Shown piece by piece: positions 6,270-40,146 of a stretch of DNA of 64,000 nucleotides. Each line of letters opens with the position of its first letter. Positions within the stretch are counted from its first letter, which is position 1. The position numbers and the translations under genes were made by a program. Location of the stretch: NCBI GenBank assembly GCA_030704615.1, contig CM060733.1, forward strand, positions 61,628,001 through 61,692,000, in the 5' to 3' direction. The notes beneath the pieces are model-generated. The model did no database searches, was not told the DNA's origin, and was given only the letters and a program-made list of their open reading frames with translations. This DNA is from Takakia lepidozioides (lineage: Eukaryota > Plantae > Bryophyta).

Positions 6270-7305
6270 CCATCTTGGACTCTCCAACCTCCATCAATCC
6301 TATTCAGCTCATCCTGATGCACTTAAGCAAGAGACAGACAACCGTATCTGAATCTACTGAAATGCCTCCTACATTTGGCATACTTGTCCACGAGGGTATT
6401 GTTCAGAATGATATCTGGTACAATTCCAGCTTTTGCGATGCAACCATACACCTCTTTGCCCGTTTCTAGGGCTGACAGGCTTGCAAATGCACACAAACGT
6501 GATGTGGTTGGGCTTCACCCCTTCCTCCATCATTTGATCATAGGTCTCCAAAGCCACCATCCGTCCCTGTTATGCATACCCTGCAAGCATCGGGTGCCAC
6601 GACACCACATCTTGTTCAGCCATAGTGTTGGAAACTCCCTTCGCAGCCTTGGCGTCAATCCACTTTGGATAATGTGATGTGTGCACCTGCTTCCAGCTTC
6701 CAGACCTTTCATCATGATGACACTTAAGCAAGAGACAGACAACCGTATCTGAATCCGCTGAAATGCCTCCTACATTTGGCATACTTGTCCACGAGGGTAT
6801 TGTTCAAAATGACATCTAGTACAATTCCAGCTTTCGTGATGCAAAAGCACCTCTTTGCCATGATTATAGGGCTGCCAGGCTTGCAATGCACACCAAAGTG
6901 ATGTGGTTGGGCTTCACCCCTTCCCCCATCATTTGTCATAGGTCTCCAAAAGCCACCATCCCATGTCCCCTGTTGGGCATACCCTGCCAGCCATCATGTG
7001 CCACGCACCACATCTTGTTCAGCATAGTGTTGAAAACACTCCCTTCGCATCTCAATGCACCCACATTTGGCATACATGTCAGCAAGGCAGTGTTCAGAAT
7101 GACATCTGGTACAATTCCACTTTGACGATGTTCACCATGGGCCCTTTCCCCTAGTTTGCAGAGCTCCAGGCTTGCACATGCATTGCCAAACACAAAAATG
7201 TGATGTGGTTGGCTTCACCCCTTATGCAACATTTGCACATAGGTCTCCAAAGCATTCCTACACCACCCATGCGTGTAAATCCTGCCAACAATTATATTCC
7301 ACGTG
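6270..7305 (-). pseudogene. Fragmented PLS-class pentatricopeptide repeat (PPR) gene
   Basis: Several frameshifted motifs such as AGIVPDVILNNTLVDKYAKC, MAEQDVVSW and ALETYDQMMEEGVKPNHITFVCICK, repeated about 3-4 times. Confidence 0.85.
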
Positions 7306-9617
7306 ATCAAGATTGATCGTTGAGGATTCGGCGGCGCATCCCCGCGAGCGTACGCTAACCGCCTGATGATACCCCCTCCGTCGGGGACGGACCCCCTCCA
7401 CATGACGGTTGAGCCCTGCACCTTCCAATCGCGGGGACTGACCCCCCTCCCCAACACAACCCCGCTACGTGTTCCCCACGCACCACAGCCGAAAAACCCC
7501 CATGCAAACCTCACACCGACAAAAACATGGCCACGCCACGAACAGCGTCCCCTCAAAAAAAAAGAAAAACATCATCCATCCCCCACCCCCCCCCCCGCCC
7601 CCCCAAACACCCCCCAACCCCCCCCCCCCCACAAAACACAACCACCCCAACCCAAAACCCCCCCCCCCACACCCGAACAACACCACCAACAACCGCAACT
7701 CAGCAAAACGCCGCGAAACAACAAAAATACCCCCTCAACAAACCCCCCCCCCCGCACACCCCCCACCCACCCCCCCCCCCCCCATCGTCGCGCCGATCCC
7801 CCTCAACCGCATGCCGGCACCCAAGTCGAGTCCGTCCGACACCTCGCTCCCCAAGGACTCATCCCCTTGCCCTCTTCAACGTGATGTGGCCGTCCCCCCC
7901 GCCGTCCGATAGTTTTCGCGATGGTCCACTGCGTGGCGCTCCCACGGTCGTCCATCCCCCTCCCTGGTCTTGTCACCGATCTCCTGCTTTGATCCCTCTT
8001 CGAAGGATCCCCCAATCCCTTCCATTTCCAACGGTGGGTATCGCACCACGTGGACCTGCATTTGTTGTTCACTTCGTCGTGGAGGTAGGGTTCTCCATCT
8101 GGATTGAGCGAGGGTTTCCAGATGTCGTGCTTGTTCGTGCTCCTGCTTCGATGGGCTTGGATGACCTGCCAGGGCCTCAATCGTGTGCGCTCTACGGCGT
8201 TTTGTGATTCTCTTGCGACTCACGTCTTGCATACAATGCGTACAGGGGGTTTTTCTTCTTTTCTTCTTCTCTTCTCTTCTTTTCTTTTGTTGTTCTTTCT
8301 TGTTTGCCTCTTTCTTAATGTTTGTTGTTTGTTGTTTTGAAAGCTGACAGGATTGGCGTAGGCTGCACCAAATCCCATTTGCAGGGGGATGAGGATCTGT
8401 AACCTTAGTACCTTTCGCATATTAAACTTCAGCCTCAACTTCATGTTTGTTTTTTCATACTACTTACCTTGCTAGATTCAAATGTGAACATCTGTGTGGA
8501 GGTATAGGGGGCTGATACCCCATGGCTTTCCTAGACCTCTGCAAACGCCATTAAAGGTGTTAGTAAAATCATAGTAAGAAAACTGGAAATGGCAGGGGAG
8601 AGAGAGAAGAGAGTGTGTACAGAAAACACTAAGTACACTGGTCAAGAATAGAGAGGGAAGACTACTATCTCTTGTCGGGACATGGACAAGACCAAACAAG
8701 ATCTTTGTCAAATTAACGACAAATCAGCCTCATAACAAGGCACTATCTAACTTCACCTTCCATAGGCAGTATCTTACCTGATAAAAACTCATGTCATCTT
8801 CCTGAAAACAGTTGAGAAGCAAAAACATTGGCATGAATCCACTTTGGATAATGTGAGTGTGCACCTGCTTTCCAGCTTCCAGACCTTGTCAAGATGTCGA
8901 ACCTGGGAGCACTTGAAAAGGGGAAAGAGGTCCATGGTGACATCGTCAGAGCTGGAATTGTACAAGATGTTCATTCTGAAACCACTGCCCCTGGTGGACA
9001 TGTATGCCAAATGTTGGGGCATTGAGGATTGCGGTGGGAGTCTTCAACACTATGGCTGAACAAGATGTGGTGTCGTGGCACGCGGATTCTGCTTGCAGGG
9101 TATGCACGGCAGGGACGTGGAAACGCAAAGGGAGTATTTGACAATATGGCTGAACGAAATGTAGTGTCATGGAATGCGATGATCGCAGGATATGCCCAGC
9201 ATGGTTGTCATACGGAGGTCCTGCAACTATTTGAAGGAATGGAAAAGAACGGCTTGAAGCTGGACAGTATCACCTTTATATGTGTTCTCTCTGCATGTCG
9301 CCACACTGGCCTACTCAATGAAGGAAGATGCTATTTCGATTCCCGAGTCAGATCATTGGTGTCACTCCGACAGTAAAGCACTTTGGCTGTGGGTGGACCT
9401 TTTGGACGTGCGGGACAACTGGATGAGGCAGTGGACTGATTAATAAAATGCCAATAAAATCCGGATGGTGTGTGTGTGGGAAGGCCTTGCTTGGTGCCTG
9501 CAGAATCCATGGAAATTGGAGACGGATGAACGGTAGGCACATCTATCCTCAAGTGGGACATGAACAGGATGTCTTATGTGTTACTATCAAGGAGCAAAGT
9601 CGCTGCTGCATTGAGGT

Positions 9618-13005: not shown

Positions 13006-13653
13006 AAAGGGAGCGTAAATTATGGTGACACACTTGGAGACGTGTGTCTCCTATGAGAAACGTGCCTAAGCAGTCTGTTTGGTTTTTAATAATTATTAGG
13101 CGAAAAAAACGGTAGTGTCATTCAAGATGAAGTGGACATGGTGCGTTCGTCTACTTCTATTTTATCCTCTTGACTTCCACCAGTTTGTTTCTATATATGT
13201 TGGTTAACCCTAAGCGCCCGGAGGGCAAGTTTGACTTTTTGCAAAAATGTGACCCCTGCGCGCAGAAAAATCCTTATAAATTGTTGAAAACTTTGAATTT
13301 TAAAATTTTGACCGCACATTACCTACTACAAGCACCTGTCAATTTTGGGGCCAATCAGATCTAAATCCACAAAACGTCACCGTTGAATGTGGGGCCCTTT
13401 TTTGGCCTCACTCACCAAAATTACCTTTTGTTTTTAACGTCAGTGAAAAATTGGCTCACGGGATGAACCCCAAATGGCTTGAATCTGTGAGGTGTTCATC
13501 TTGGTGGGTCCTTCCATCCAACCCAAAAAGAAAATTGGAAATTGGACAAAATTTGGGATGTTGACACTTGGTCAAACACTTGGTGGGTGAATTTGTAAAA
13601 TTGGGTTTAACAGTCGCCGACTCCCTGCTGCTTCGACCAACCAATCTTGCCCT

Positions 13654-13991
13654 TGTCATGGTTTTAGTCATGGTTATCTATAATTACCTACTTCTAGTTA
13701 ACTAGGACATTTTAGATATTTATATTTATATTTTGTGTGTTGGGACTTCATTTGGTCTCACATGCCAAGTGAGGTGTCGAACCTCACTTGGGACATGGGG
13801 CTAGGCTCATCTTCTTGTAGTTGAGCCTCCATGAGCCTCTCTCACCTCTATAGCTTTAGGTATTGAGAGGGAGTGTGGTGAGGGCTTTGTAGGGTGGATT
13901 CCCTTAGCAAGGGTGCCTTTGGCTTGACTTAGTTTATGTGATTGAGTGGTTCATGAGTGGTGTGTTCCTATTATGTTCACTTTCATTTCAT
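13654..13991 (+). repeat. Terminal direct repeat A (5' copy)
   Basis: Near-identical to 23386-23750 apart from a ~25-bp indel and scattered substitutions. Confidence 0.9.
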
Positions 13992-15328
13992 CACTACAAG
14001 AAGATGACCTTATGCTTGTGAGTGCGGAGTGTAAGGATAGTTTTGCACTTGTGTTGATGTACACCAAGGAGTGAGAGAGCTAGGGAAAGCTCAGATATCT
14101 CACAAGGCTTACAAGGTGTTGCAAGGGAGAGTGTTTTTGCATTGCATCAAGGAGGTGGAGAGCTCTTGAGTTACAAGACTTTGCAAGTGTTGCAAGGAGA
14201 AAGCATTATGTGCGCGGAAGCAAAATGTTTGAAAGTTTGAGATGAGAGCTAGAAGAAGGAGCGCCATCTCTTGTATCTCAAGTGTTATGACAACCATTTG
14301 CCAAGGAAGTGGCTTGTATGGTGAGAAGAATCATGCATTGAAGGTTTGTGGAAGTCTTATTACACACTAGGGTTTCAAAGCTTGGAAATGAAGCTCTTAC
14401 ATCACAAGAGGATCGTCTTGTGCATGGAAAGCATAGATGCTAGGGTTTCATGAGCTTTGCAAAGCACTGTGGAATGAAGGCGTGCATGTGATGACATGTG
14501 GCTAGCCACCAAGAGGCTATGGAGTGCTTGTTCTAGGTTCAAGGTTTCTATGATGTGGGAGAAGAGCCAAGGAGCGGCGCGAGCTTGGGCTTGAAGCACA
14601 GTGAAGGAAAAAGGCTGATTTCCCTTGTGAGAAAGGAGTTCATGTGTGGAGCATACTTTCAACCCATTTGAGGCTTGTATTTTCAGGTTTTGGAGTGCAA
14701 GACAAGAAGTAATGGGCTGATTTCTCTTATACGAGAGCGGCGCATGTATGGAGCATATTTTCTGCCATTGAGGCTTCTATTTTCAAGCTATGGAGAGCAA
14801 GAAAAGAAGGGAGAGGGCTGGTTTCCACGTAGGTGAAAGAAAAACACTTGTGGAGCATGCTCTCTAGTTGGGGTTTGCAACGTCAAGCTCTAGGAGAGCT
14901 AGGAGAGTGAAGGGACGGAGCGGATTCTCTTGTGTGTGAAGATACGCATGTGTAGAGCATGCTTTTGGCTTGAGCTTTGCAATTCCAAGCTTGAGAAGAG
15001 TGGCTCTTGAGCTAGCAAGTGAAAGGAGCTTGAACGACCAAGGCTTGAGAGGAGATAATAAGGCTTGGTGACTTGCTAAAGGAGGTAAAAAGCTTTGTTC
15101 TTGAGTTCCAAAGAGATGTGAAGCTTGTTGTGTGGCAAATGCATTGCTAGAGGAGTTGGACCAAAGCTTGGTTGCACCTTGAGGTGAAGAAGATCAAGAG
15201 AGCTTGTCTTGGTATCACATGGAACTCATGAAGGCTTGAGAAGATCAAACATGAAGCTCAAGGAAGCACAAACCCTAGCATGGGATGCACAAACCCTAGC
15301 ATGAGATGCACATGGAACCCTAGGTTCA

Positions 15329-15456
15329 TGGGAACAGTCACCAAAGTGTGGGAACGGTCACCGTAGTCTGGGAACCGTCATTGTAGTGTGGGAACCGTCA
15401 CTGTAGTCTGGGAACGGTCACCAAAGTTTTGGAACGGTCACTATAGGCTGGGAACA
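15329..15456. repeat. 20-bp tandem repeat, about 7 copies (TGGGAACSGTCAYYRWAGTS)
   Basis: GGAAC recurs exactly every 20 bp from 15331 to 15451. Confidence 0.9.
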
Positions 15457-15489
15457 TAGTGACATATAAAGACAATATAGGGCTTTTGG

Positions 15490-15900
15490 AGGATTTTCCT
15501 TTTGGAGGATTGTTTGGGGGATCTTTGGGGTCCTTTGAGGAGCTTTTGTAAGGCACTTTGAAGAGCTCTTGAAGAGGTATTTGGATAACTGTTTGGAGGA
15601 CTATTTGCGGTCCTTGAAGGCCAAGTTTTGGCAAGTTTTTGGAGCTTTTGAAAGGCTATGTGGAGGACCATTTGGGGTCTTTGAAGGCCAATATTTGTCA
15701 AGTTTTTGGAGCCTTTGGAAGGCTGTTTGGAGGGCTGTTTGGGGTCCTTGGAGGCCGATATTTGGCGAGCTTGAGGAGTCTTTGGCGACTTGTTGAAGGA
15801 CTATTTGGGGTCCTTGAGTGCCGAGATTTGGCAAGCTCTTGGGGCCTTGGTGTACTGTTTGAAGTACCATTGTGCAAGCTTTGGGAGCCTTAGTGAGATT
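15490..15900. repeat. Degenerate 67-bp tandem repeat in the retroelement leader
   Basis: TGGAGG...TTTGGGGTCCTTGAAGGCC...TTTGGCAAG recurs at 15594, 15661 and 15728, with weaker flanking copies. Confidence 0.75.
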
Positions 15901-16789
15901 GTTTGAGGGACATCTTGAGGGCTCTTAGAGAGTTATTTGAGAGATCTTTGAAAGGTCTTGTCTATTGCTTAAGTAAAAGAGTGTGGAGATAGGGTAGTGG
16001 GATGAGATCATGTTGTGACAGGAATTGCTTTAGTCTCTCTTCCTTGTAGTCTTCCACTCTCTGTAGGCCAAAACCTTTCCGTAGGTGGAGGCAAGAGTCA
16101 GTCCGGGTTTGGGCTAGGGTGTCTTGCGGAAGCGACATTGTGGAGTGTTTTTTGTGTGGGGGGTTTACTGTTTTGATTTTCTTGTGTTTGGATCCCCTCT
16201 ACACCTGCATGCTTGACTGTGCGCCATGTCAATTTTGTGTGGGCGCTTGTTTTCATAGGAGGTTGGTCCGGATTTGATCACCGGTCAATCTTAGAGCGTA
16301 CTGTCGGTGGTGAGGTTGGGGTGACGCCATTATTGTTCTCTTATGGTAAGGCTGGATTGATGACCAGCAGACCATATGAGTGCTTGCGGTGGATGCAGTG
16401 CAGGTGCAGGTTTATGTTATGAACCTAGTAGTCTAAGCCATTAGCTGCAACAGGTTCTCTAACCGGTTATCTTGTGGAAAGGGGGATTAGAGACAGGGGC
16501 GTGGAAGGGGCTGTTTCAGCACCTTGAGGGGCCGCCCATGGATGATTACCATGAGTTTAGGCGGGGACATGAGGTGGAGATTGAGGAATGGCGGGAGTAT
16601 TGGTCACCTGACTATATCTCCATCACCAAAGGCACATAAGGGCAGCGGCGACACCAGCAGCTACACCAACATCCCAATCGCAAGCACTAGTAGTGGGACA
16701 AGTGGTACAAGAGCTGGGAAATCTACTCAAGCTCCTGTTGCAGCACCAGCCCGTGCCTACCTTTAATCTAGTTGTGGAGTTCTTGATCG

Positions 16790-17400
16790 AGGAGTTGAGA
16801 AGAAACTACCAGGGGAAGTTGCGGAGCTTGTAAGAGTTCCAACGGAGGCCTACTGAGAGTTTGAGGGAGGCTTACACGCGCATGAGATGCTTGATAAATG
16901 TAACCCAAGCGGTTACGGAAGCTCAGGCAGTCCAATTCTGGTATGGGATATTGGACAAGGAGCTGAAGAGAAAGGTGCGGGATGCAACTCTCCTACAAGT
17001 GGACCAACTCACCTTAGCAAATGTGTTTTTGCTGGCAGAGCAGATAGAGCTCAATATGGTGGAGGAGCGAGTGGTTATGGTGGGGTTTGGCAATGAGACA
17101 CAACGAAGTGGGGCTCCTAGCCAACAATAACTACTACCCTAACGTGTTCAAGGCAACAAGGGGGCTCAGGTGAAGCCCAGGTAAGGACAGAGAGGATCTC
17201 AGATGCAGAGGTCTCTTCCTTCATTCTCGGGCCAACAACAGTTGGGTGTGACTTGTTGGGATTGTGAAGGACCCCATGTCAAGAAGGATTTCCCGGAGAG
17301 AGACAAAGGGCCTGCACAGGCACAGCCTACATAACTATAGTGTGGGCATTGTTGAAAGTATGGGCATGAGTAGGCCCATTGTTATGGCTTGCATCTTGAG
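16790..17400 (+). pseudogene. gag: gag: capsid-like region plus two zinc knuckles
   Basis: FQRRPTESLREAYTRMRCL...AVQFWYGILDKELKRKV (Retrotrans_gag-like). Knuckles CWDCEGPHVKKDF (~17254) and CGHC*KYGHE*AHC (~17341). Contains stop codons. Confidence 0.75.
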
Positions 17401-18339
17401 CTACGGCCAGGCCAGTTCCAAGGGAACAATGGTGGCCGAGGACGAGGCAATGTAGTCCAGAGAGGTAGAGAAGGCAGAGGTTGGGGTGTAGGTTGTAACC
17501 AAAACCAAGGAGCACAGGGTCAAGCTCAAGGTCATGACCAAGGCATGGTGGATAGACTTGCCCAGCTAGAGCAACGTCTTGCTGCCATGGCCACTACTCA
17601 TGTTGCGCCAGCTCCAAGGCTTGAGGTTCAAGCCCCACCTGCACAACCTCCTATGCCTAGGGAAGACCAGATTGGTATGGGCTTCATGTGTGGAACCGCA
17701 CGTGCAGGGCCATTGCATGTATTGGACTCTGCTGCTGCTGTCACTCGAGCAGCAACGCGTGCTCCTGAGCCAAGAGGAGCGGATGTGGATTTTGATCCAC
17801 AAAGGGGGGAAGCGAGTCGTCAGACAAGGCTTCCACAGCCTTTACATTGGCTGAGACAATGCCACCTATGCCATCAATGGCACCCGCTCGCCCAGGTGTG
17901 TCGACAGAGGTAGAGCTACGAGTACCATTGGGGAGAGTTGGTGTGGCTCGGGAAATGCCAGTGGGTGGTGCTGCAAAGCAAGGTGCAGCCAGTACATTGT
18001 TGGGAGCAGCTACGGCGGTTTGCCAAGCTCCATTGTTTTCTGCAATGACCATTGCAGTGCCGGGAATTTGGCCAGCTGCTGTGTTCAGACTAGCAGCTAC
18101 ACTCTGTGAGACGAGTGATTCATCTGCATTATCTGCGGGGATAGCAGATAAGGTGCAGTCTATGGATGCCTTGGATTCGTGGGTGAAGTCAACCACAGCT
18201 GCGCCATGGCAAGCGGCAGCTGCAAGGTTGGAGGAGTTGTCAGCTAGGCCAGCCATTGAGCGCAGCATGGTGACTCCTGGAGTAGTCTTGGTGGACAATC
18301 AAGATGAAGTGTTTCAGTTGGGTGGCCCAACCGGGAGGA

Positions 18340-18720
18340 GGTATAGGCCATTGCGGGTCTTGTTGGACTCGGGAGCATAGCCTTTGATGTTGGGGAGAGC
18401 AGCAATTGCAGGCTTGGGCCTTACAGAGACGGACTTGGAGCCTTGCCCTTTCCAAATTCAAACATCTTTGGGTGGTTCAAAGAAGGTGCGAGGGCCTTGG
18501 CGCCAGGTGGCGACCCGCGGGGTTTGTTTGCGACGGCCCGACGTTGCAAAAAGGTGTTGCGGGGTTGGCTCTTTATTCGATTGCAGCGGGATCATCCTAC
18601 GGACGGCTTAGTCATGAGAGCTAAAGCCATTGTTACGGACGCGATGTCCTATGATGTGCTTGTTGGTGGGGCTGTGTTGTACCCATGGGATTTACTTTGG
18701 ACTTTTGGGAGGAAACGATA
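18340..18720 (+). pseudogene. Retroviral-type aspartic protease
   Basis: Catalytic motif RVLLDSGA followed by a stop, with SYDVLVG further downstream. Confidence 0.75.
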
Positions 18721-19129
18721 TTCTACCGGCCGGAGCGGCAATTAGGGGATGACCGACGTGCACTGCTCCCAGTGCGGTTTATTGGGAATGTAACGGTGGA
18801 TCATAGGAACATGATGCCAACATTGGCTGCATTCTCAGGTGTGGTGGCTTGGGGTGGTGAGCTCTTGGAGGGCAATAGCCATGCAAATGATAGGCCACCA
18901 TCTGATGAGGACAAGCAATTGGCATACAAGGCTGAGTTGCTTCCTCATGTTCCTGTGCATAGCTCACTGTGGGGTGCAATTGGGGATTTACAGTGAGTGG
19001 CAAACTAGTGTGTGCAACAAGCATGGCAGGAGGCCTTTCCATCGATAGGTGAGGGGAGTTTCAGTGACATCACCTGGACCTCCTCAGTTAGCTCCATTAG
19101 ACACAGTGCCTATTATCTGGCAACAACCT

Positions 19130-20090
19130 GACTCAGGCATTTGTTTGCTAGACCTGTTTGGAGGCATGAGCACTGGGCTTGTAGGAGTGTTGCAAGTAGG
19201 AATCAAAGTACGCAAGTACTTGTATGTGGAGAAGGATGAGATTGCTCGGCGTGTTTCCATGCGCCATGTTGCCTTGCTCACACATCAATATCCCGAGTTG
19301 TTGCCTCTCTCAGCAATTCAAGGGTACTAAAAGGCCTTGCCAGCAGACATTACCATGCTGGGCGGCGGAGGATTTGGATTGGCATGGTCCCATTGACTTG
19401 GTGATAGGAGGGTGCCCTTGCCAAGGACATTCTCCCGTAGGTCATGGTAATGGTTTGCATGATGCACGATCGCATCTGTTTTGGGAGATGCTGCGAGTGT
19501 TGCGTGACTTGCAGGTGAGGCAAGTGCAACCTCCAGCTTACATCCTGGAGAATGTTCATCTCATGGGGGATTCTTGGGCTAGGGTTATGGCCAGTGTACA
19601 TCAGATCCGGTCATGGATTGGACCAGCTGTATTGTTGGATGCAGCTGCAGTGGGTTCACGGGCACATAGGCCTAGGTTGTGGTGGACCAATCTTGCACCA
19701 CCAGAGTTGCTCAAGAGAGCCTATGATTCCATTCATCGGCCACCCAACCTCACGGTTGAGGGCATTTTGGACCAAGGGAGACAACCACAAAGAGTGCAAA
19801 ATGATGACCGTCCACCTTTGGCGGTGATCAATCGAGTGGGGCAACCACGTGCGGCCTTGCCTACACTCATGAGTTTTCCTTCAACTCATGCTTTTCGAGA
19901 CAATGGTCCAGGGTTGATTTGGGACAATGTGCTACAGCAACTAGTGGAGCCTGGTGCAGATGAGCGAGAGTGGGCAAATGGGGTGTGCCACGGGCACTAT
20001 AGCTATGCCAACTCTGTTAGAGGAATCATGACGCCAGGTGTTGGGTCAGACAATGGATCTCAATTGCTTGACATGGGTCATTGGCTTGTG
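19130..20090 (+). pseudogene. C5 cytosine DNA methyltransferase domain (DNMT3-like) within pol
   Basis: Motif I LLDLFGG (19151), II YVEKD, IV PIDLVIGGCPCQ (PCQ 19416-19424), VI ENV (19548-19556), VIII AHRPRLWWTNL, IX EREWAMG and X RQVLGQTMD, in canonical order. One stop (19328-19330) and frameshifts near 19365 and 19975. Confidence 0.92.
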
Positions 20091-20599
20091 CATGGCTGAG
20101 CAACAGATGCAAGCATTGGTGGCTACTTCTGCACTTCCATTGGATATTGCACCATCTCTGCCAACCGGGACGGTGGAGGCAGTGAGTGGGGGCGAGCATA
20201 AGATCATGGGGTGCAAACATCCATGACAGATGTAGGATGAGATGCGCAAAGAGAGAGTCATTGGATCTCTCAAGCAGCAGTATGAGGAGTGGGGAGAGCC
20301 ATACACTGAGGATCAGTTGGAGGCCAAGGTGGCTAAGGTTTTTGAAGAGGTTGAGAATGTTTCTTGTTCAAAGGATGTTCTCAAGGTGGCTATGGCGGAA
20401 CAAGTGGAGGCTACGCCACAGTTAGGGTGGGCGGACAAGGCCCAAGAGGTTGCTATCTAGCAACCAAAAGATGCGTCTCCTACTTCCAAGCCTGGTGTAC
20501 CCAAGGTTACAGTCATTGTGGACAATTGGGAACCAGATGTTGGACCTACAGTCACCGGAGGAGAGAGATGGAGGATCCAGCGATTTCTAAGGGCTTATA

Positions 20600-21410
20600 G
20601 AAATTGTTTTGCCTTCGGTTGAAAGGATTTGGGGAGTTTGAAGGGCCGGGAGATTCGCAAGTGATACGCCAATTTTTCGAAGGCCCTACATGTATAGTGA
20701 CATGGAGAGGTCTTTGATCGAGTCATGGACTATGGAATTGTTCGAAGCTGGATTGGTGGAGTTGTCAGGCGGGGAGTATGCCTCGGCAACGGTGAACCGT
20801 CAGACTAAGTCCGATAGATATGCTATGCCAACTCCAGAGGAAATCTTTGATGCCATTGGGCATGCGAAGGTGTTTAGTACATTGGACTTACTATCGGGTT
20901 ATCACCAGTTGCCAATCAAAGAGGCTGACAAGCAAAAGACGACATTCTGGGGGATTGACCAGCATGAGAAGGATTGTTTGTACCAATGGCGCTTCCTACC
21001 ATTTGGGAAGAATGCTCCAGCAGAGTTTCAGAGGGTCATGGATAGGATTCTTGTAGGGCTAGACTTCGCCCGGTGCTATATTGATGACATCATCATCTTT
21101 AGTGCCACGGTTGAGGAGCATGAGAGACACCTTCTGGTGTTGTTTGAGCGCTTGAAGGTGCATGGATTGAAACTGCACCCTGGCAAGTGCAAGTTCTTCC
21201 ATGATCAGATTGAGTATCTAGGCCACATGATATACCCTGGAGGATTGGGTGTTCAACAGACAAAAGTGGAGGCTATTGCACGCATTCCACGCCCCATAGA
21301 TGTAAGCAAAGTTCGTGCTTTCATGGGGTTGGCAAACTACTATCGTCGGTTTGTCAAGGGATTTAGCAGCATTGCAAAGGCTCTTACCAAGTTGATCAAG
21401 GTGGGTTAGG
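20600..21410 (+). pseudogene. pol: Reverse transcriptase (gypsy type)
   Basis: YAMPTPEEIF, FSTLDLLSGYHQ, LPFG-KNAPAEFQRVMD, YIDD (21077-21088), KCKF, YLGH and FMGLANYYRRFVKGFS. Confidence 0.95.
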
Positions 21411-21900
21411 AGTGGCAGTGGGAGGAGGAGCAGGAGCAAGCCTTTGAGGAACTCAAGGCTCGGTTGACTTCTGCGCCTATACTGAGGCGGCCTATTCGGA
21501 GGCGGCCTATTCGGGGGCGGCCTTTCCATCTACATACGGATTGGAGTATGCTGGGGATTGGAGCAGTGCTCATATAAGTGGATGATGAGGGAAGAGAGTT
21601 CATAGTGGCATATGCTAGCCGCTTGAACAATGATGCCGAGGCAAAATATAGTTCCTATGAAGGGGAGTGTCTAGCTGTAGTATGAGTAGTGGCACATTTT
21701 AGATGCTACCTCTATGACAATCTCTTCACCCTTGTCACGGATTACCAACCATTGAAGTGGGTGATGGAGTCAGACAAGCTTATAGGGAAGCTTGCACGGT
21801 GGGCACTTATGCTTCAAGAGTACGACTTCCAGGTGGTGCATTGAGCCGGAATAGTCAACCGGGATGCGGATGGATTGAGTCGCAATCCATGCACAATTGA
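21410..21900 (+). pseudogene. RNase H domain
   Basis: LHTDWS, AYASR, EGECLAVV, VTDYQPLKW and NRDADGLSR, with several in-frame stops. Confidence 0.9.
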
Positions 21901-22259
21901 GCTTGATGATACAAGAGCTCATTGGCATGGTGAGACAGACGAGGAGATGGTGCCAAGATGGCACACATCTGCCTTTTTGGGCATTCTAGCAATGGGAGCT
22001 CAAGCTGGTCCATCCAATGTGATTGGTCATAGAGATAGTGTGCATGGCAATCCAGAGATCAGTGAAGAGCTTGGTGGTGCTAAGGATGTGCAAGAAGATG
22101 CAACAGTGTTGGCCTACCCTCGTACTAGAGAGACAGCAGCCAGTGTGACTGCTAAGGAGAGAGATCGGATCCTACAACGAGCCAAGAGGTTCAAGTGGGA
22201 GGGGACTCACCTACTCCGAGTATGGGAGGATGGACAAGTGAGGATTGTGCCTCATCCAA

Positions 22260-22800
22260 CATAACCAGCGCGATTGGTACGCCATGCCCATGAGGAGTTG
22301 GGACATTTTGGAGTGCGGCGCACTCATAGTTTGCTGCAAGGACAGTATTGGTGGCGGGGCATGCACACGGATGTACAGCAGTTAGTGGCAATGTGCATGG
22401 TGTGTGATAGAGTGCGGGCTTCTTTCAATGCATCTACTCCACAATTGCATCTTTTACCCATTATGGATTTGGGCTAGAGTTGTTCAAGAGAGTCATGCCT
22501 ATGGCTTTTGAGAACCTTGCTATTGCCCAACACCGAGACATATTGAGGTACGCCACTATACGTGGAGGGGGGTATCGGCCAGATGTTTGGCGATTCCATC
22601 CTGGGGACTATGTGTATTTGCAGCAGACAGTGTCTACGACCTTGGATGTCACAACAGGTCGTATGATTCTAAGGGTCCGGGAGGTGTTGCCTTCAGGAGT
22701 GTTGATTCTGGAGGGTCGAGATGACATGGTATGGAAGGACCATGTGCGCAAATGTGCGCCATGTCACCTTTCACATGTGGATGAGATAATATATCCTAAC
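22260..22800 (+). pseudogene. Integrase N-terminal HHCC zinc finger joined to the C-terminal part; DDE core absent
   Basis: HEELGHFG...YWWRGM...CMVC then LLPIMDLG* runs directly into ELFKRVMPMAFENLAIAQHRD...FHPGDYVYL. Confidence 0.85.
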
Positions 22801-22824
22801 CTTGCAGTGGTACCTACAGGGTTG

Positions 22825-22965
22825 CGTTGCATGCTATGTGGGCATGTTGGTGGTGCCGCGACCATGTTGGTGTGTGACAAATGCTCAAGGGGGTGGCACA
22901 TGGGTGCTTGACACCGCCACTTGAGGAGGCTCCTAGTGGAGAATGGTTGTGTCCACGATGCCTTG
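22825..22965 (+). pseudogene. C4HC3 PHD finger at the pol C-terminus
   Basis: CMLC...MLVCDKCSRGWH, then after a 1-nt frameshift CLTPPLEEAPSGEWLCPRC. Confidence 0.9.
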
Positions 22966-23287
22966 AACAGAGGTAGTGGGGCATGACAGTGGCGAGGTTG
23001 ACAAGTGATCCAAGGTCTAGCTAACGGGAGTTCAATGCCATGGACACCCAATTGAAGCCATGGATTGCAGGAATGCGAGTAACGATGGGGCTACTTTTGC
23101 ACCCGGCCTCTTGATCTATTGACTTCAGATACTGGGACTTGGGCGATTGATGACCAAACGATGATCTTATTGGGATGGATACTTGTCAGCTATCCGGTGT
23201 TAGAGGGATCTGCAGCACATCCATGACATAACCTGGAAATTTGTGTGATTTCTTTCTCTTGTGTCTTGGTTGATAACTTTCGTGGCT

Positions 23288-23297
23288 AGGAGGGCGA
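23288..23297 (+). promoter_or_regulatory. Putative polypurine tract
   Basis: AGGAGGGCGA lies just upstream of TGTGGTATAG, the start of repeat B. Confidence 0.5.
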
Positions 23298-23298
23298 T

Positions 23299-23822
23299 TG
23301 TGGTATAGCTTTCTAGGATTGTGTGCTTAGATTGTGTGGTGGACAACGATGTATGTTGTGGTATGATGCTTAGGTGCACGACGGCTGTCATGGTTTTAGT
23401 CATGGTTATCTAGAATTACCTACTTCTAGTTAACTAGGACATTTTAGATATTTATATTTATATTTTGTGTGTTGGGACTTCATTTGGTCTCACATACCAA
23501 ATGAGGTGTCGAGCCTCACTTGGGACATGGGGATAGGTTTTCCCCTTGTGAGGATGGAGGAGATTTATCTTCTTGTAGTTGAGCCTCCATGAGCCTCTCT
23601 CACCTCCATAGCTCTAGGTATTGAGAGGGAGTGTGGTGAGGGCTTTGTAGGGTGGATTCCCTTAGCAAGGGTGCCCATGGCTGGACTTAGTTTATGTGAT
23701 TGAGTGGTTCATGAGTGGTGTGTTTCGATTATGTTCACTTTCATTATCATTGTGGTATAGCTTTCTAGGATTGTGTGGCGGACAACGATGTATGTTGTGG
23801 CACGGTGCTTAGGTGCACGACA
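23299..23822 (+). repeat. 3' terminal repeat block B-GC-A'-B'
   Basis: B 23299-23383, GC, A' 23386-23750, B' 23751-23822. Confidence 0.9.
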
Positions 23823-24333
23823 CCCTAAACCCCAGATCTGATCAATCCCTCTCACACACGTCTTTGCCGACGTGGAGTCCCTTCTCATTTTTTTTTAATT
23901 TTTTTTTTGGTTAAGATCTCAATCCTGTCACACCTTTCGTAACATGGCTGGAGACCCCTTTTGCGCCGTGCGGGCGCTTAGGGCACAAATCGCCTCACTC
24001 ATGGTTGTGGGTCCATCCAACATGTTGGATGTGATAAAGGTGTCCACCTTACCACCGGAAGATAGTAGCCTTTGGGGGCAAAGTGACACCATAGTAAGTT
24101 AGGCTTGCTTCAGTAATGCCTTCAATTTTTATTTTATTTTTCAAGGCACCACAAACACCACAACTCCTAAATCAAATCCCACCTGAATTTTGATCCTCTT
24201 CATAGCAAGTGTTGATTAAGCAGTTGTTCTTTGCTTCACCTTCCTTATCATCCGTATCGCTCAGCTTGTCTCTTTTACTGTCATTGCCATGGTAGGTTGT
24301 GTTTTTCCTTCTCGCTCTCCGTGTGGTAGCCAC

Positions 24334-26761: not shown

Positions 26762-27170
26762 TCATTCTGCAACACGTGGACCTTGGGGTTTCGGAGCCCG
26801 AGAGTTTGAGCTGGTCACAGTGTGAACACAAATACAGCCATGTCGTAAATCTAGCTGGTTTGAGTCTATCAATCCATGAGCTCACTCAGAGGTTTTGATT
26901 TGACATGCAAGATATATAGCATGGCGGTATCAATTCGTTTGTCTGTTCTCAGATGGTCAACTAGATCTACTGAGGATTTACGACATGGCTGTATTTGTGT
27001 TCACACTGTGACCAGCTCAAACTCTCGGGCTCCGAAACCCCAAGGTCCACGTGTTGCAGAATGACAAACATCTTGAACAGACAAACGAGTTGATACCACC
27101 GTGCTATATATCTTACATGTCAAATCAAAACCTCGGAGTGAGCTCATGGATTGATAGACTCAAACCAGCT
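26762..27170. repeat. Interleaved double inverted repeat P-Q-P'-Q'
   Basis: P 26762-26851 is the perfect reverse complement of 26975-27064 (90 bp). Q 26853-26955 is the reverse complement of 27069-27170 with a few mismatches. Confidence 0.9.
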
Positions 27171-28926
27171 TGAGACACAAACGGCGTTGTCCGTATCCTC
27201 TGTCCAAATCTTTGGCCGTGCAATCTCAATGTCGACAAACAAATACGGCCGAGTCATATGTCAATTTCAAGACCTCCAGTAGCAAACACATGATGGAATG
27301 TGTGTTGACAGACTCAAATAGAGTGTGCAGACATGGGCCTTCTTACCGGGCCTCCGAGTCAAGCCTTAGAAACAACAGAGTCTTACATCACGCTAATTCT
27401 GAGCATGTCCAAAACATGGAACACAAAGGGGGCCTCGCACACTTCAAAACGAGTTTCTCTTATATGCAGCATGTGGGCCTTCTTGTCAATTGCTAAAACT
27501 TCTATTATAACCCCTGGGAATGTAATATATGGTCTGGCTTGGTCCATTCATTGCAATCTGGCTTCCTGCAACACTTGATTATGGTCATGAAACACCTGAT
27601 GGAGAACTCATTATTCTCTTGAAAATGAGGGAAAATTCTTCTGATTCACAAACTAACATTGTTAAGTGGTGGAGTGAGTCAATGCAAGAAGGATGGAAGG
27701 CTCATGCCTAAGCAAACCACTTATGGTGTCAATTCACCCCGAAGCTGGATAAGTCGATGCAATTTCAAAAAGGGAAGGAGAGCCGTCTTGTACTAGAGGA
27801 AGTTAGTGGAGTCTGATGAAAATTACGTAGACAAGAAGGAGACTTGCGTTACAGGGACTGCTATGCAGTTTGAGCCAGAACCACTTGGCTCCTCTGGCAT
27901 CCTCCCTATACCTAGAATTTTGAGAGAGAAGTCTTTGGGACAGATGTGGACTTGGTGCTAAGATTTTCACTCGAAGCTGCTGTTGCAAACTGGCAGATAC
28001 CCATCCTCACAACAAATTTATGTAATCTTAGCAGCCTGAGTTTGTAAGTTTGTAAGAGTCTTCTGATCTGTATCCATGAGTGACAATTGAGCCAAAATGA
28101 GGCTGTAACAAGTGAACAGATATTATCTGTGACTCCGGTAGCTCACTCCGGTAGTGTAACTGACCTCGGTGTAACACAGTAATGACAGCATTGCGGATTT
28201 CAATAACGAATACAACTGCATAGCCACCTCTCACAGGTAAGGTATCATCATAGACTATAGGTGAGTCAGTTCTACTCTTCCTATACCACAGTTTGAAGGA
28301 AAAACTGCACCATATCGTCATTCCAAAATTGACAAACTGAAGATTGCAACTTCATCACATGTTCTTATGAGCTAGTGATGTTCAGGCCCCTTCAGTGACT
28401 AATTCAACTGTTAAGTCCTTCCTCATTTGCGCTTGCAGTATGAGATACTGTTCAGGCATGAATCTTCTCTGGAATAGCCTGGCACATGGCACCTACCACA
28501 TGGTTTTACTCCGCATGCGAGTACACAGAAGATTTTTGGCAAGATGGCAGCTCTAAAATGGAAAATACATCCTACTCTTGCCCTCCATTCTAAGTAGGTG
28601 GATACACCGGGTTCGGTGAAGCAATCATTTTTTAGGCAACCATAACCAAGGTGGGTACATCAACAAGTCACTGCCATTGTAGTGCTTTCATCAGCTTTCA
28701 TCCACCACCCTGCTTTGTTGGTTTCTTTTTTGGAGGGGGAGCACACTATCCACCACAATCCACTTGGAAAAAGGGCAGTACACGCTTGTGGAAGGAGACG
28801 GAGAGCACTGTCTACAACTTGGTAATTCTGCTGCATCTTCGTTTTTCATGTCTAGACCAGCTCTAGACAGGTGAAAAATGTCTCAGCAGTTGCTGTTCAA
28901 GAAAATACTCCATACTAAGAAGTTCC

Positions 28927-29039: not shown

Positions 29040-32000
29040 TTAAAAGCTCCTTGTGGCACCAAGGGGGTCATAGTCATAGGCTTGGCCTGCCTTCACAAAC
29101 CGACCTTTTACCCTCTTCCGAATATCTGCTCGGGCTTTGCGGGATTCGTATCGAATTCGCTTATCAAACCTGTTGCAACAGTCAGTAGGTGAATAGGTCT
29201 ATGGTAACTGTGCCAGTGTGCATGCTACATTAGTCAGTTCCACAATGTCAAGACCCATGACCTGTATGATGCCATACAGCATAGAAGACTAATATTACTT
29301 GGTAAACAATACTAAATGCATACTAAATACGTGCCTGGTCGGTAAGAGGATGCCATTCGACCTAGAAGACTGAGAATACAGACAAACACCAGAGTCTATC
29401 TACTGACAGCACGCTTCTCAAGTAAGATCAAATTACCTACAGCTACAATACCTTAAACGTGTTGACTAACATGGTTAGACTGACAACTACTAAGCTCTTG
29501 TATTGAGATGCTGCATGAAAATCTTCCGGAACCAGGAGAAAATGGGACTACAGCGTGTGAATACTACTACCAAGAGATCCATAGAAATCCAGAGACTTTG
29601 AGTGAACACTTTTGAGACATCGAGGAGAAGATTGAAAAAATATGAATTGAGTCGTTACGTACTTGCGCGTCTTTTTCTTCTCCTTGTAACGAAGCATTGC
29701 AGAATCCCTCGCTTGGGCAAGAGCTTCACAGTCAGGGCTAGTTGGGCCCCATGAAGGCTCCCCACTCAGAAACATGGACGATGCACTGCAATCATGGTAG
29801 TCATTGCTATCTCCACTCCTTCCTGAAAGTGACACTGATAAGCTTGAGCCAGTTGGCCTAGACATAAACTGGAAGCCCATGCTGGCCACTTTGCTAGGTA
29901 CGACAACACTCCCTGAACTTATTCCTGAAGGTTGAGGTGGCCGGGGCCCTGGTCCTGCAGGTCTAACAACATCAATCTGCAACTTGGGAGTGCCATTGCT
30001 CATGCCAACAGTTGCACGCACCTGCAGATGAGTTCAACATCCCACCATTGGACTTTGTACCAGTATCTCAGAATATGAAACCATGCAGCGTTCTTCCAAG
30101 GCTATTTACAAGGGCTGCATATGCATAAGAGCCCCACAGTCTTGAAAAATCAAGCTCCCACCTACTCAGGACTCTGGAGAGACTGTATTTATTGGACATG
30201 TGCTTGGAAGCATTACGATGTACCATTGAGGTACAGCTACCCCACGCCATAAACCTTCTAATGCCAGTAAATGCCCAGCATTGCCACAATCTTGTACACA
30301 GTCAACAACAATCGGGGTACAGACACTTGGATATTGATTAAGCCCCTGATATCCTCAAGTTAGAACCATCATGTGATCCCAGAATTCCTCCTTCAACCCC
30401 CTTACAGGTGGGCTACATATGATTGAAATTACAATGTTAAAAGGGCCGATGTGGGGAGGGAGAGAGAGATGATGATATGTTTACTGGACATTGCTTGCTT
30501 ATAAAACTTCACCAAACAATGTGTGAACTTGTAACAGGGTAAGAGTGGTGGAATGTACACCAGTTGATTCAAACAGCTCTGCCTCAGGGATGCTTTGCAT
30601 GTGACCACATTCATCATCAGCAGATCTGTCTCCCACGGAAGAGCATGCAGCCCCTATGTTGTCAAATGATGAGGCTGAGGGAGCTTGAGTACTAGAAAAG
30701 ATATCTTCATAGTTGTCAAATGTAAGATCAACATCTGCCATACTGAAGCCCTCACATGGATCACTGTCTTCTCCTTCACAAATCCCAAGATCCTGCATGT
30801 TTTGACCCCATAGCTGCCACCCAAAACAGGAAAAGTTTAAATTCAAGTTCAAGGAAACATGGAAGGTAATACTTCTTGACACAACACACGAGCCCTGGAG
30901 AGACTTCCAGAAGTTCAGAAAACTCCACCTGAAAATGCAAAGCAATTGCTTCAAACAAACATATCTTATTCTCAAATTATCATTTACCACTGTCAGATGC
31001 AAAAGACATTGACAAGTTTTGCAACCTGACTGCCTTGGATCACTGCGCTACAACGCCAGTACGTATCCCCTCCTCGAGAGAGACCATCATTTCCACCCTC
31101 AGACTTGAGCTGCTGGGTCTCTGGTGTTACAAGAGAGCCTGAAACAGCCATCTGCTGCAGATCCTGTGAAGACAGCTCGTCCGGGTGTACATGATTGGGA
31201 GACAACTGTGGCTGCGTCTGCGGCTGCAGCTGCTGCTGAGATGGTAGCCTCCGAGGCTCAGATGGAGACTGGAAGGAGTGTGAAATCTGCTTGGGTAATT
31301 GGGGTGACATCATCCCTTGCATCTGCACGTGCAGGGTGGACTGAACTGGATCTTGGTGTTGCAGCGTCTGGAGCTGCTGCACAATGGCCCGCGTAGACTG
31401 CTGCTTGCTTTTCTTCCCTACATTCACCTGCTGCAGTCCCAGAAAAGAGGTGCCCATGACTCTGTCAACAACTGATGACACCCATTTCTGGCAATGTCAG
31501 AGAAGATTACATTACATTGCATTGCATTGCTGCTATAAAAACCATCATCAACAGAAGTCAAATGAACAAGAGGCGACTTACTGGGAACAGACACTTTACA
31601 CAAAATACAGAGACCTCATTTCATAGGATACAACAATGTAAAGATCAAGTCAGTTGCCATTTTCCACAGTATACTTCATGTTACTGTGGCATGGTATTAA
31701 ACCACAATGAATTCTCAAGATTCTTTAACTTGCCTTCACTTAACACCCTTGATGACGGACTGATCCCGTGTCTCCATTATAAGTGACAAAGGCTACATAT
31801 ACGATTACCTTTGCAAAAACTGAAGTTCCAACACCAGGTGTGGCTGGATTCAATGCCAGCTCCGCAGCTGGTGCTCGCATATCTGCGACAAATTGAAACC
31901 TTTGAGGGGCAGAGGCCCAATTGTTTGTGGAACTGGGCCCTACACTTGTCTGAGGCCCCGCATCTGGCTGCGGTGATGGATATGTGCCAGTGTTTCCAAC

Positions 32001-32426
32001 CCACTGATTGTTGCACCCATCTCTTGCATGCATGCCAGAAAAGGTAAGAGTGCCTCTCGAGGAACCAGAGCCAGGGGTTGCTCTGGTCTCACTCAAATCA
32101 CAGGCCCAGAGGCAGGCAAGCTCAGCAGCAGATGGACAACCTGTGAAGCACTCAAACGAGTGGCGCTTATGCTGAGATGCCACAGGGGAACTTCCATGAG
32201 TTTCCCAATCACAACTTTGACAAAATGAGGTATTATGAGCAGAGCAGCGCACTGTTGCAGGCCGTAGGTTACATCCATCGCACAGAAGAGTTCGAAGATG
32301 ACGCTGGGAGAGCGCATTTGCTGCATGCACATGACGGTCACAAGACAGACATAGACGGGCTGAATCTGCTCTGCAATAGACTGTGGCGCGTCCCTCCCCA
32401 CAGAAATCACATCCTGCTTCCATCAT
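29040..32426 (-). CDS. COL: CONSTANS-like B-box protein (two B-boxes plus CCT; COL9/10-type)
   Basis: Exons about 32426-31809, 31487-31026, 30813-~30550 (donor uncertain), 30021-29663 and 29169-29040. Motifs CDFC...[48 protein letters not shown] and [17 protein letters not shown]|[26 protein letters not shown]...YDYDPL. Confidence 0.95.
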
Positions 32427-34203
32427 ACAAGATTAACTCCAGCCTAGTGCTCTCACAACCTAGCTTTGCCTCAAAGCTGCTGTTGTTTGAGCTTCCAAAC
32501 ACCTGCTTACCCACTATTCCAGGCAAGTCTGTTCTACTACTTCAAAACCACCCATGCGCCTCCTCGTCGCATGCCTTCGACTGCCGGACGCTGCAGTCTT
32601 TCATCCTCGCTCGGCTCACTCCTGTCACCTCGCAGTTGCCTACCGAAAGTAACATTCCTGGCAACCGTTCTAATTCAGTAGTACTCCAACATTATTACCT
32701 GGTCCACTGGCAGCAATCTATCAAAACCTAGTAGACTAGACTTGTCTAAACTAGAAGCACCCAGAAGATAGAGTCGAGGATGACGACCTTGGCGAGACGT
32801 TATGTACCTGCATCGAAGCGCTTTATTAAATGGTTATGCAGGAGAGGAACGGTATAACAAAAACTCTGCTAACGTACCTCAGCGCATCCTACAGTTACGT
32901 TGAGCCAGGAGCCCTACCGTTAATTGCCCAGTACCTTGTTATCCTTCCACACAGAGCAAGCCTCTTCCAATACTACACCTCAAATACTCACGTGACCTGT
33001 TACACAAGCACAAGCAGTCTGGTCCAGTCTTTAGAACTATATTAGCTTCCATGTGAATCCCAGTTTGAATCAAACATTCAGACTCCTCATAATCACTCCA
33101 TCGGAACAGAAAAACTGGGGTTCGATGGCAAAGTCCTTCCAGCTAAGTCCTCAAGGCGAAAAAGCGCAATTTTTTGCGTTTCCCCAACAGCTGAGTGCTT
33201 GGTTTCATATATAACTTGCAAATAAGCTTACAGTATTTGGTCAGTAATCTTCCATCCAAGGGCTACAGCACTTAATGCGTAGTAAACAGTGGACAGCTCG
33301 CCAATCAATGTTTTGAAGGTGGCTAACTACTGAAGGATAGACATCCAAAGCCCTGCACAGTAGCACGTCACAGTTGTCACATCTTGGTAATTACTAAGGG
33401 AAGCTTGAGGCTCTTTAAATGAAAAGCGCTGAAACTAAGTCTCATAGTAGAAAGAAATTTTTTCGAGCCATAAGCTGTTCTCAGAACCTTCCCCTAACAT
33501 AACTACATTATCAAAGGGCAGGCCTCTCAAAACCGCCTCCCTGTCCCCTCACATCACAACATAGTAGAAGGACGCTCAAAAAAATGCCTCTGAAAAAGAT
33601 CCGAGGGCCAAAGACGGCATGCTTTCAACTATCCTTACCTACACCAAATGCAGGGTACAACAGCTGCACCTAAGTAGGTATATGGACCAAAAGCCGAAGT
33701 GTTGTTGGCAGCTACGGCACACGCACAAGCTCCCGGGGTGAGGCAGCATCCAGCAGCTGGATGAGATTGAGAATGCGATGGAGGAGCGAGAGCGCAGAGC
33801 GAGGCAGCGATGGAGAGACGCAGAGCAGCGAGGCAGCGAGCGAGACAGAGAGCAAGAGTCCGTCGCTCTACTCTCAAAAGCAAAAAGTGCAACCTCGCAC
33901 GCGCTAAAGCGAAACCCTGCGGATGAACGATTTCCATCCTTATTGTATTCTCATTCATCTATTATGTAAGATTATTTTTGTTATCATTCGACAATTAACT
34001 AATTGGTTTTTCCTAAATGAATTTATGTTTCTAGAGGCAAGAACATTGGCTTAACCATCGCAGTGATGGATGGCGTTTGGATGAAACATGGCCAATAGAA
34101 GTTCTTTCATTTATCTTTTTTTTTTTTTCACGGAAATCCTCGAAATTAAATTAAGGAAAAAATAACCTCTACGGAGCCCCGAAGGCTTAAAAGAGAGGGA
34201 GGG

Positions 34204-39780: not shown

Positions 39781-40146
39781 CGCCAGCTTTCCCTCACACA
39801 CGCGCTTCCCTGCCCTGCCCCTCCAGCACCACAGATCGCTGCGACCTCGTCTGCACACTCTTCGCTGCCATGAACCCAGACGAGGAAGACGACGACCATC
39901 AGTGCCCAGTACTATATACGGATACGGATACGGATACGTATTGTGATAGTATGTGTCGTTGCCGGGCAAGGGTGGGAAAGGCCTCTTCTTCTTCTTCTTC
40001 GCTCGTCGACTCTCTTGTCGCTCTTGTCTCTCTGATCTCTCAATGTCCGGAAGAGCTGCCGGGGTTGGCTGTGCATGTCACAAGAGCTCGAGGTTGGGGG
40101 GTGCCGGGGTTCTTTCCATTCAAAAAGGGTGTGATAGAGGGTGAGG

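Follow-up and report, generated by a model that had tools for sequence, protein, structure and literature searches.

Does a cytosine methyltransferase lying between the protease and the reverse transcriptase (RT) of a moss retrotransposon belong to that element, and if it does, on which DNA would it act? The question is raised by a stretch of 64 kb from Takakia lepidozioides (assembly GCA_030704615.1, contig CM060733.1, positions 61,628,001 to 61,692,000), called the window in its whole length, in which an element with the order Gag-protease-C5 methyltransferase-RT-RNase H-integrase-PHD occupies positions 13654..23822 of the plus strand (10,169 bp). The present analysis, in which related proteins carry P-numbers and related loci or contigs L-numbers, leaves very little doubt that the methyltransferase is an integral domain of the element family.

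The motifs of C5 cytosine methyltransferases were found on the plus strand at 19130..20070, between the protease motif LLDSGA (18360-18377) and the RT motif YIDD (21077-21088), as the original prediction from the letters alone had claimed. They are motifs I (LDLFGG, 19148-19165), II (YLYVEKD, 19217-19237), IV (GGCPCQ, 19407-19424), VI (YILENV, 19539-19556), VIII (AHRPRLWWTNL, 19662-19694), IX (EREWA, 19962-19976) and X (GQTMD, 20044-20058), and the open reading frame (ORF) holding motifs IV-IX matched PF00145 with an E-value of 1.5e-11 and 44.8 bits, the cut-off being 22 bits. The non-permuted order, also predicted, is that of DNMT3 and not of DRM. DNMT3A was the best sequence match of the window methyltransferase in the PDB (E 2.4e-10, as against about 0.1 for DRM2), profile scores reached 85-93 bits for DNMT3A, 45-58 for DRM and up to 39 for M.HhaI, and all listed Foldseek matches of the structure model of P0027 (pLDDT 89.9) were DNMT3A, DNMT3B or DNMT3C, the best with an E-value of 1.4e-19. 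The domain is thus a predicted enzyme, DNMT3-like in both motifs and modelled fold, and membership in, or origin from, the DRM family was rejected on motif order and profile score. The window copy itself is dead, as had been noted: its methyltransferase is interrupted by a stop (19328-19330) and by frameshifts near 19363 and 19980, stops and frameshifts occur throughout the element, and a deletion at 22474/22477 has removed about 188 integrase residues, including the three catalytic-motif regions of the relative L060.

The framework around the domain is that of a Ty3/gypsy element, with the order Gag-protease-RT-RNase H-integrase, TG...CA ends flanked by target-site duplications (TSDs), a Ty3-type RT and a DDE integrase. 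The second ORF of L060 found Ty3 Gag-Pol as its best PDB match (E 3e-98) and contains the integrase core (rve, E 1e-13) that is absent from the window copy.

Protein searches with the methyltransferase gave matches in Marchantia, Calypogeia, Sphagnum and Riccia, the long Marchantia proteins being Gag-protease-methyltransferase; Closterium P0232 is a single predicted protein in which the methyltransferase precedes the RT, and in Coleochaete a protein of the same RT clade, P0315, has the order RT-RNase H-integrase-PHD. Among 80 metagenome loci, chosen by the presence of the methyltransferase and mostly of one family, a protease was found upstream in 47 of the 57 with enough flank and an RT downstream in 57 of 61, and the loci departing from this order were, where readable, deleted, truncated or bearing insertions. 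ORFs running without interruption from protease through methyltransferase occur in P0004, P0008, P0018, L060 and L086. A profile search returned 360 representatives at E ≤ 1e-30; in the 126 full-length domains among the 146 new representatives listed (clusters at 50% identity), the catalytic cysteine was kept in 125, the glutamate in 126 and both arginines in 125. Between diverged, near-intact copies the ratio of nonsynonymous to synonymous substitution (dN/dS) in the methyltransferase was 0.13 (L060/L055) and 0.17 (L001/L002 and L001/L003), and the domain is under purifying selection.

Summed read-contig depth in run X1 amounted to 78,000-104,000 over the methyltransferase bins and 104,000-314,000 over protease and RT, with 1,449 in the last flank bin, which fits a family of many copies that includes the methyltransferase, depth not being a copy number. 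No joint skipping the methyltransferase was present among the 15 of 190 joints listed from the contigs of four runs. An alignment-based scan of viral contigs yielded no relative among 29 candidates, and further alignment scans gave just ordinary prokaryotic or viral methyltransferases, L086 and L087 excepted. These two (CADCWO010000201.1 and JBAVTE010000030.1) are elements of eukaryotic type, complete or nearly so, that come from bacterial metagenome bins and are probably mis-binned eukaryotic DNA; L086 is a circular-looking contig of 9.2 kb.

Trees, built with FastTree only and without named reference elements, place all methyltransferase-bearing elements in one RT-RNase H clade of 81 with a support of 0.98 (161 sequences, after removal of six near-duplicates from clusters and of proteins with fewer than 330 residues covered). 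One of the two sister groups in this clade has the methyltransferase before the RT and comprises the window element, Marchantia and Closterium P0232, and RT proteins of Calypogeia and Coleochaete fall here as well; in the other, of 37 proteins, it lies between RNase H and integrase. Clade members labelled as RT proteins with no methyltransferase probably owe the label to a second ORF that begins past the stop described below. Distances in the methyltransferase and RT trees were correlated in the before-RT group (Spearman 0.90, 15 elements) and in the after-RNase H group (0.47), with none of 500 permutations as high in either case, and in the methyltransferase tree the latter group forms a single clade (0.93). 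The simplest reading would be that the domain was acquired once and later moved within the polyprotein, though the root is weakly supported and rests on five phage enzymes. Neither a missing PF00145 match nor a one-off capture, the two outcomes that the original prediction had set against itself, was seen.

Two further observations concern this part of the tree. The Ty3-PHD elements of the second sister group (P0022-P0025, part of P0154-P0287, and L087:3061-10362) keep the catalytic residues of the methyltransferase, and their hosts are GC-rich and possibly green algae. In the Ty3 polyprotein P0350 an adenine methyltransferase (Dam, PF05869, E 1e-7) separates protease from RT, and a PHD stands between RNase H and integrase; this protein falls outside the cytosine-methyltransferase clade of the RT tree.

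The prediction was right in treating the methyltransferase as integral to a Ty3/gypsy family, but not in treating it simply as a domain of pol. Intact coding, sought in the form of one Gag-protease-methyltransferase-RT ORF, was found instead as two in-frame ORFs. In L060 ORF1 encodes Gag-protease-methyltransferase in 1369 codons, an in-frame TAG CAG TTA follows, and ORF2 encodes RT-RNase H-integrase-PHD in 1047 codons; in L086 the two intact ORFs are separated by an in-frame TAG CAA TCA. A stop in the same frame occurs at the corresponding position in 50 of the 55 distinct loci surveyed between methyltransferase and RT (39 TAG, 11 TAA), directly followed by CAR in 47 of the 50, and the five loci without it show three substitutions and two insertions. 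In the window it is the TAG at 20458-20460, continued by CAA CCA to give a predicted read-through signal (20458..20466, plus strand). Because of this stop, the methyltransferase ends the Gag-protease-methyltransferase frame and is likely to be made at the level of Gag. The context UAG CAR YYA, shared by the window, L001, L055, L060, L078 and L086, is the read-through consensus (Type I) of tobacco mosaic virus as given in passages of PMC3542737. Here it is predicted to set the ratio of Gag-protease-methyltransferase to RT-RNase H-integrase, and in the commonest family YYA is replaced by CCC. No literature was found on CARYYA or on stop read-through in retrotransposons. We infer that ORF2 is made by read-through, with re-initiation as the alternative; under either, the methyltransferase is part of the Gag-side product.

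The end repeats of the element are oddly arranged. Termini bounded by TSDs had been predicted within 16790..22965; they are real but lie further out, the left end reading CCCT then TGTCATG at 13654 and the right end CACGACA then CCCT at 23822, with the duplicated CCCT at 13650..13653 and 23823..23826 and imperfect 7-bp inverted termini. Two complete colinear long terminal repeats (LTRs) were not found at these ends; the repeats are split, either as A1...B1-A2-B2 or as A...B. In the window, on the plus strand, repeat A1 (13654..13993) is identical to A2 (23386..23749) at 323 of 337 aligned bases and B1 (23298..23383) to B2 (23750..23822) at 69 of 74; a polypurine tract (23288..23297) adjoins B1, and GC stands between B1 and A2. 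The same complete layout occurs in L043, L051, L056/L058 and L074. Loci matched by A and B repeat probes gave distinct 3' ends of three sorts, namely eight of the type B-nn-A(-B), eleven with the purine tract and B running into host DNA, and five deleted or rearranged. TSDs of 4 bp flank both forms, nine being perfect and three having one mismatch in the 12 complete elements surveyed. The B/A junction, preceded by the purine tract and B, reads CACGACA-nn-TGTCA, nn being mostly GC or AT and the site often a 10-bp palindrome; in the window it is CACGACG-GC-TGTCATG (23377..23392, plus strand; CACGACA-GC-TGTCATG in relatives) and constitutes the predicted integrase site. Purine tract, B and CACGACA-nn-TG recur in L060, L086 and L087, the last a member of the sister group in which the methyltransferase follows RNase H; its contig ends in purine tract-B-CACGACA-GC-TG.

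Directly after A1 there is no TGG tRNA-type site. The predicted primer-binding site (13993..14007, plus strand) is the exact complement of 13807..13821, the predicted self-primer and putative 5' end of the RNA, over 15 nt, a length reached by none of 200 control positions. The sequence following A pairs with the middle of A over 17 nt in L051 and 16 nt in L060, the paired sequences differing among the three, and exact complements of at least 10 nt exist in 11 of 21 copies. The sequence CACTACAAG that follows A1 belongs to the primer-site stretch, and its reading as an end of a CACTA transposon was rejected for that reason. L060 and L086, in which purine tract, B, A and primer site follow one another, were not accepted as true circles or as a mirror form of the repeats, for short-read collapse of A1 and A2 yields the same contig. 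In L013:6005-6120 and L023:6015-6130 repeat B is inverted upstream of gag, and no A repeat was found there. The copy at L063:8350-13213 is rearranged: an internal piece is inverted and a junction keeps primer-site bases, an autointegration-like arrangement, yet with a perfect TSD.

Taken together, we consider it reasonably probable that this Ty3/gypsy family produces its DNMT3-like enzyme at the level of Gag, in excess of RT, methylates its complementary DNA (cDNA) before or during insertion, and forms its ends through an internal site. Read-through of UAG CAR YYA would yield ORF2, and the methyltransferase would therefore be abundant and freed by the protease. The RNA would prime itself after A1 in the manner of Tf1, the plus strand would start from the purine tract before B1, and the terminal repeat of the cDNA would become B-nn-A at both ends. 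Inserted copies nevertheless end at CA-nn-TG inside the repeat with 4-bp TSDs; since LTR reverse transcription would give B-nn-A ends and the insertions end at nn, the DDE integrase would act at the internal palindromic site, most likely in circular or end-joined cDNA. Cutting of a one-repeat circle, or of both sites of linear cDNA, would give A...B, and an end-joined two-repeat molecule cut at its left site would give A...B-A-B, with A2/B2 as the join of the cDNA tips; a 17-nt filler in L043 and the retained primer-site bases in L063 fit such newly made joins. Only A...B-A-B would have the repeat that strand transfer requires at each end of the RNA and could move again; A...B copies would be dead ends.

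Being fused to Gag and protease, the enzyme would be expected in the particle, and cDNA would be the first DNA it meets there. Methylation of the element's cDNA by its own enzyme is therefore likely, a possibility that the original prediction had raised together with packaging and with methylation of the insertion site, and methylated cDNA would enter the genome pre-marked like host repeat DNA. The PHD finger would help in the choice of sites by reading unmodified histone H3 tails: its best matches were the fingers of CHD4, PHF12, PHF21A, KDM5, UHRF1 and AIRE, and many of these bind unmodified H3 tails. Methylation of cDNA was also suggested by de Mendoza et al. (PMC5890265) in the passages available, where SymbioDIRS-Dnmt3 domains methylated CG in yeast. 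A wider picture, held more tentatively and at somewhat less than an even chance, is that of an old and little-described green-lineage Ty3 clade, from algae to mosses and liverworts, in which the integrase site has moved inside the LTR and insertion proceeds from circular cDNA via CA-nn-TG, a leaky stop supplies a DNMT3-like enzyme at capsid level so that copies arrive methylated, and the enzyme has shifted between two places of the polyprotein.

Several observations weigh against this scheme or against parts of it. Copies without the methyltransferase could not show up, because the metagenome loci were picked by that domain. The sibling copies L002/L003 have a dN/dS near 0.9, interpreted as decay after insertion. 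The exact CARYYA follows the stop in just 7 of the 50 stop-bearing loci; the main family has TAG CAA CCC ATG, which would also permit re-initiation, and the stop is not universal, since four deeper relatives (P0167, P0232, P0334 and P0335) have methyltransferase and RT in one predicted protein. In six of the 21 copies no exact self-primer match reaches 7 nt, and in four more the match is only 8-9 nt long. In yeast the Klebsormidium domain gave no methylation, a result that its authors, in the passages available of PMC5890265, call inconclusive. Finally, because a two-repeat circle is symmetric, the mirror form A-B-A...B would be expected, and B preceded A in none of the 24 distinct 5' ends. 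The missing mirror form is not explained by insertion from circular cDNA and keeps alive an alternative of the DIRS type.

According to that alternative the ends are of DIRS/PAT type, A1...B1-A2-B2 being inherited whole, the B1/A2 junction serving as the template that closes the circle, and A...B arising by recombination between B1 and B2 after insertion. The layout is the split-direct-repeat form of DIRS elements (described in parts of PMC8969392 and in the legend of Fig. 4c of PMC5890265), the lack of a mirror form would be accounted for, and three of seven A2/B2 junctions (L008, L074 and L051) are the same or one base apart. DIRS elements, however, generally lack TSDs and use a tyrosine recombinase (PMC8969392, in the part available), whereas a DDE integrase and 4-bp TSDs are found here; moreover, the purine tract and self-primer indicate ordinary LTR reverse transcription, which would leave B2 uncopied, and the junctions of L043 and L063 look newly joined. 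We regard this alternative as unlikely, though with some real claim.

A second alternative leaves the methyltransferase integral and active and changes its main target to integrated DNA: it would act in trans on existing family copies or at the site of insertion, which might, for instance, throttle the family and spare the host. Output at the level of Gag would far exceed the need of one cDNA, and slowing of transposition is one option named in the available text of PMC5890265. The company of a PHD finger and a DNMT3-like domain recalls the pairing of ADD and catalytic domains in DNMT3. The finger sits on the other ORF, however, and in Ty3 biology a fusion to Gag and protease would put the enzyme in the particle by default; integrated DNA as the main target is judged improbable.

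The origin of the domain has its own competing explanation. A host DNMT3 gene is the likely ancestor, DNMT3A outranking all other solved structures in the comparisons of sequence, profile and fold, and in a published tree (PMC5890265, as far as available) the Klebsormidium domains group with Dnmt3. Phage methyltransferases score nearly as high, however: five of them reached 67-82 bits with the profile that gave DNMT3A 85-93, phage clusters stand at the same score of 0.96 in Atlas, and retrotransposons are reported to have acquired prokaryotic-like adenine methyltransferases (bioRxiv 10.64898/2026.05.21.726589, in part). A further 158 bacterial and viral loci scored no more than 73 bits, and uptake from a phage or bacterial DNMT3-related enzyme has perhaps one chance in several. 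That the methyltransferase is a one-off capture, a nested insertion into the window copy or a functionless passenger is hardly conceivable, for nothing specific speaks for it beyond a broken window copy with a foreign stretch in the protease near 18490-18570, and it is contradicted by the shared position in dozens of loci and several genera, the continuous protease-methyltransferase ORFs, the conserved catalytic residues, the low dN/dS and the co-divergence with RT.

The closest known relative is KnitGypsy-Dnmt3 of Klebsormidium nitens, a kinship that the original prediction had suspected and that is borne out by description. According to the available passages of PMC5890265 that element likewise combines Ty3/gypsy domains and DIRS-like repeats with a Dnmt3-like methyltransferase that is non-permuted and under purifying selection; because of these likenesses the window family appears to work in the same way and probably belongs to the same clade. 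It differs in being present in land plants (liverworts and mosses) and other streptophyte algae, and in the stop between methyltransferase and RT, where the authors describe one Pol ORF. Since this one-ORF feature is lacking in the window lineage and the comparison with Klebsormidium is by description only, the protein searches having yielded no named Klebsormidium protein, the family was not filed as an outright KnitGypsy-Dnmt3 member. The term PHD does not occur in the main text of that paper, and self-priming, TSDs and an internal integrase site are not in its available passages.

SymbioDIRS-Dnmt3 and other DIRS/PAT elements share the layout A1-internal-B1-A2-B2, and SymbioDIRS also has a Dnmt3-like domain (PMC5890265 and PMC8969392, in part); membership in this group is ruled out by the DDE integrase and the TSDs. 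Self-priming elements such as Tf1/Sushi and Tcn1, as described in parts of PMC7175516 and PMC6317226, similarly have no tRNA primer site, and the sequence after their 5' repeat pairs inside the repeat; the self-priming of Tf1 given in the former has the pattern of the pairing after A1. They have ordinary LTRs, whereas the window family has permuted repeats, a PHD and a methyltransferase, a comparison made with a tree that contains neither Tf1 nor Tcn1. Tcn1 belongs to the chromovirus clade (PMC6317226, in the part available). Membership among the chromoviruses (Tcn1, Chlamyvir) was rejected: L060, P0022-P0025 and others carry a PHD and no chromodomain. The words PHD and methyltransferase are absent from the REXdb paper. 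DAM-LTRs and EpiLTRs are also LTR elements with DNA methyltransferases, theirs being adenine methyltransferases or DNMT4-related domains with chromodomains; in the available part of that preprint (bioRxiv 10.64898/2026.05.21.726589) Gypsy-DNMT3 is cited just as "streptophytes", and neither Marchantia nor land plants are named.

The remaining parts of the window element, all on the plus strand, are as follows. A long 5' leader (14008..16350, its right boundary approximate) contains tandem arrays of 20-bp and 67-bp units at 15329-15468 and 15498-15929. The degenerate gag (16499..17844; tblastn with Marchantia P0002, E 1e-75) probably starts about 150 bp further upstream and has two zinc-knuckle-like motifs (17254-17289 and 17341-17382). 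It is followed by a broken aspartic protease (18243..18690, DSGA at 18366-18377; PF13650 in the relatives P0018 and L060), into which a short stretch unlike the relatives breaks at 18490-18570; one contig of run X1 skips this stretch. Beyond the stop lie the RT (20654..21400; PF00078, E 8.5e-27), RNase H (21410..21900; PF17917 and PF17919), the integrase zinc-binding domain (22265..22474; PF17921, E 1.8e-16), just 3' of which the catalytic core is deleted, and the C-terminal part of the integrase with the PHD finger (22477..22961). The finger (22828-22961, with a frameshift near 22904) matched PF00628 weakly (E 3e-4), the match in L060 having an E-value of 2.6e-10; like the conserved stop and the split repeats, it is absent from the original prediction.

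Elsewhere in the window, a decayed fragment of the same family, consisting of leader and the start of gag, lies on the minus strand at 34240-34951, with 73-82% identity to 16262-17270. Host genes are a B-box gene with a probable CCT end (CONSTANS-like; 29548-32432, minus), a CCCH zinc-finger gene (40138-40635, plus) and pentatricopeptide-repeat (PPR) genes or fragments (50134-51136, plus, and near 6300-9350). The PPR and B-box genes by themselves point to a land plant as host, and the neighbours of the element in the RT tree to what is probably a bryophyte. Decayed ORFs at 61174-63706 (plus), which we take to resemble a CACTA-type transposase region, gave no Pfam match for the single ORF scanned, and two interleaved inverted repeats of 90-99 bp are present at 26762-27173.

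A literature search, with most subscription papers and Repbase outside its coverage, gave no report of such elements in land plants, of their stop or of an internal integrase site, and the papers listed on split repeats included none on this family. Retrotransposon-borne cytosine methyltransferases in the literature found are from algae and protists only; here land plants have them too, among them Marchantia, a model liverwort in which several predicted "genes" are these elements. The two-LTR detection tools would miss or mis-trim them. The ends would offer a natural case of a retroviral-type integrase acting on an internal junction: for retroviruses the precursor of integration shown is linear DNA and not the circle junction (review PMC11054761, in part), so that insertion from circular cDNA, if true, would be the route rejected there. 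The leaky stop predicts an unusual dose of the enzyme, the use that a transposon makes of its own methyltransferase can now be tested in a plant for which genetics and methylomes exist, and counts of DNMT genes in bryophytes may include these elements.

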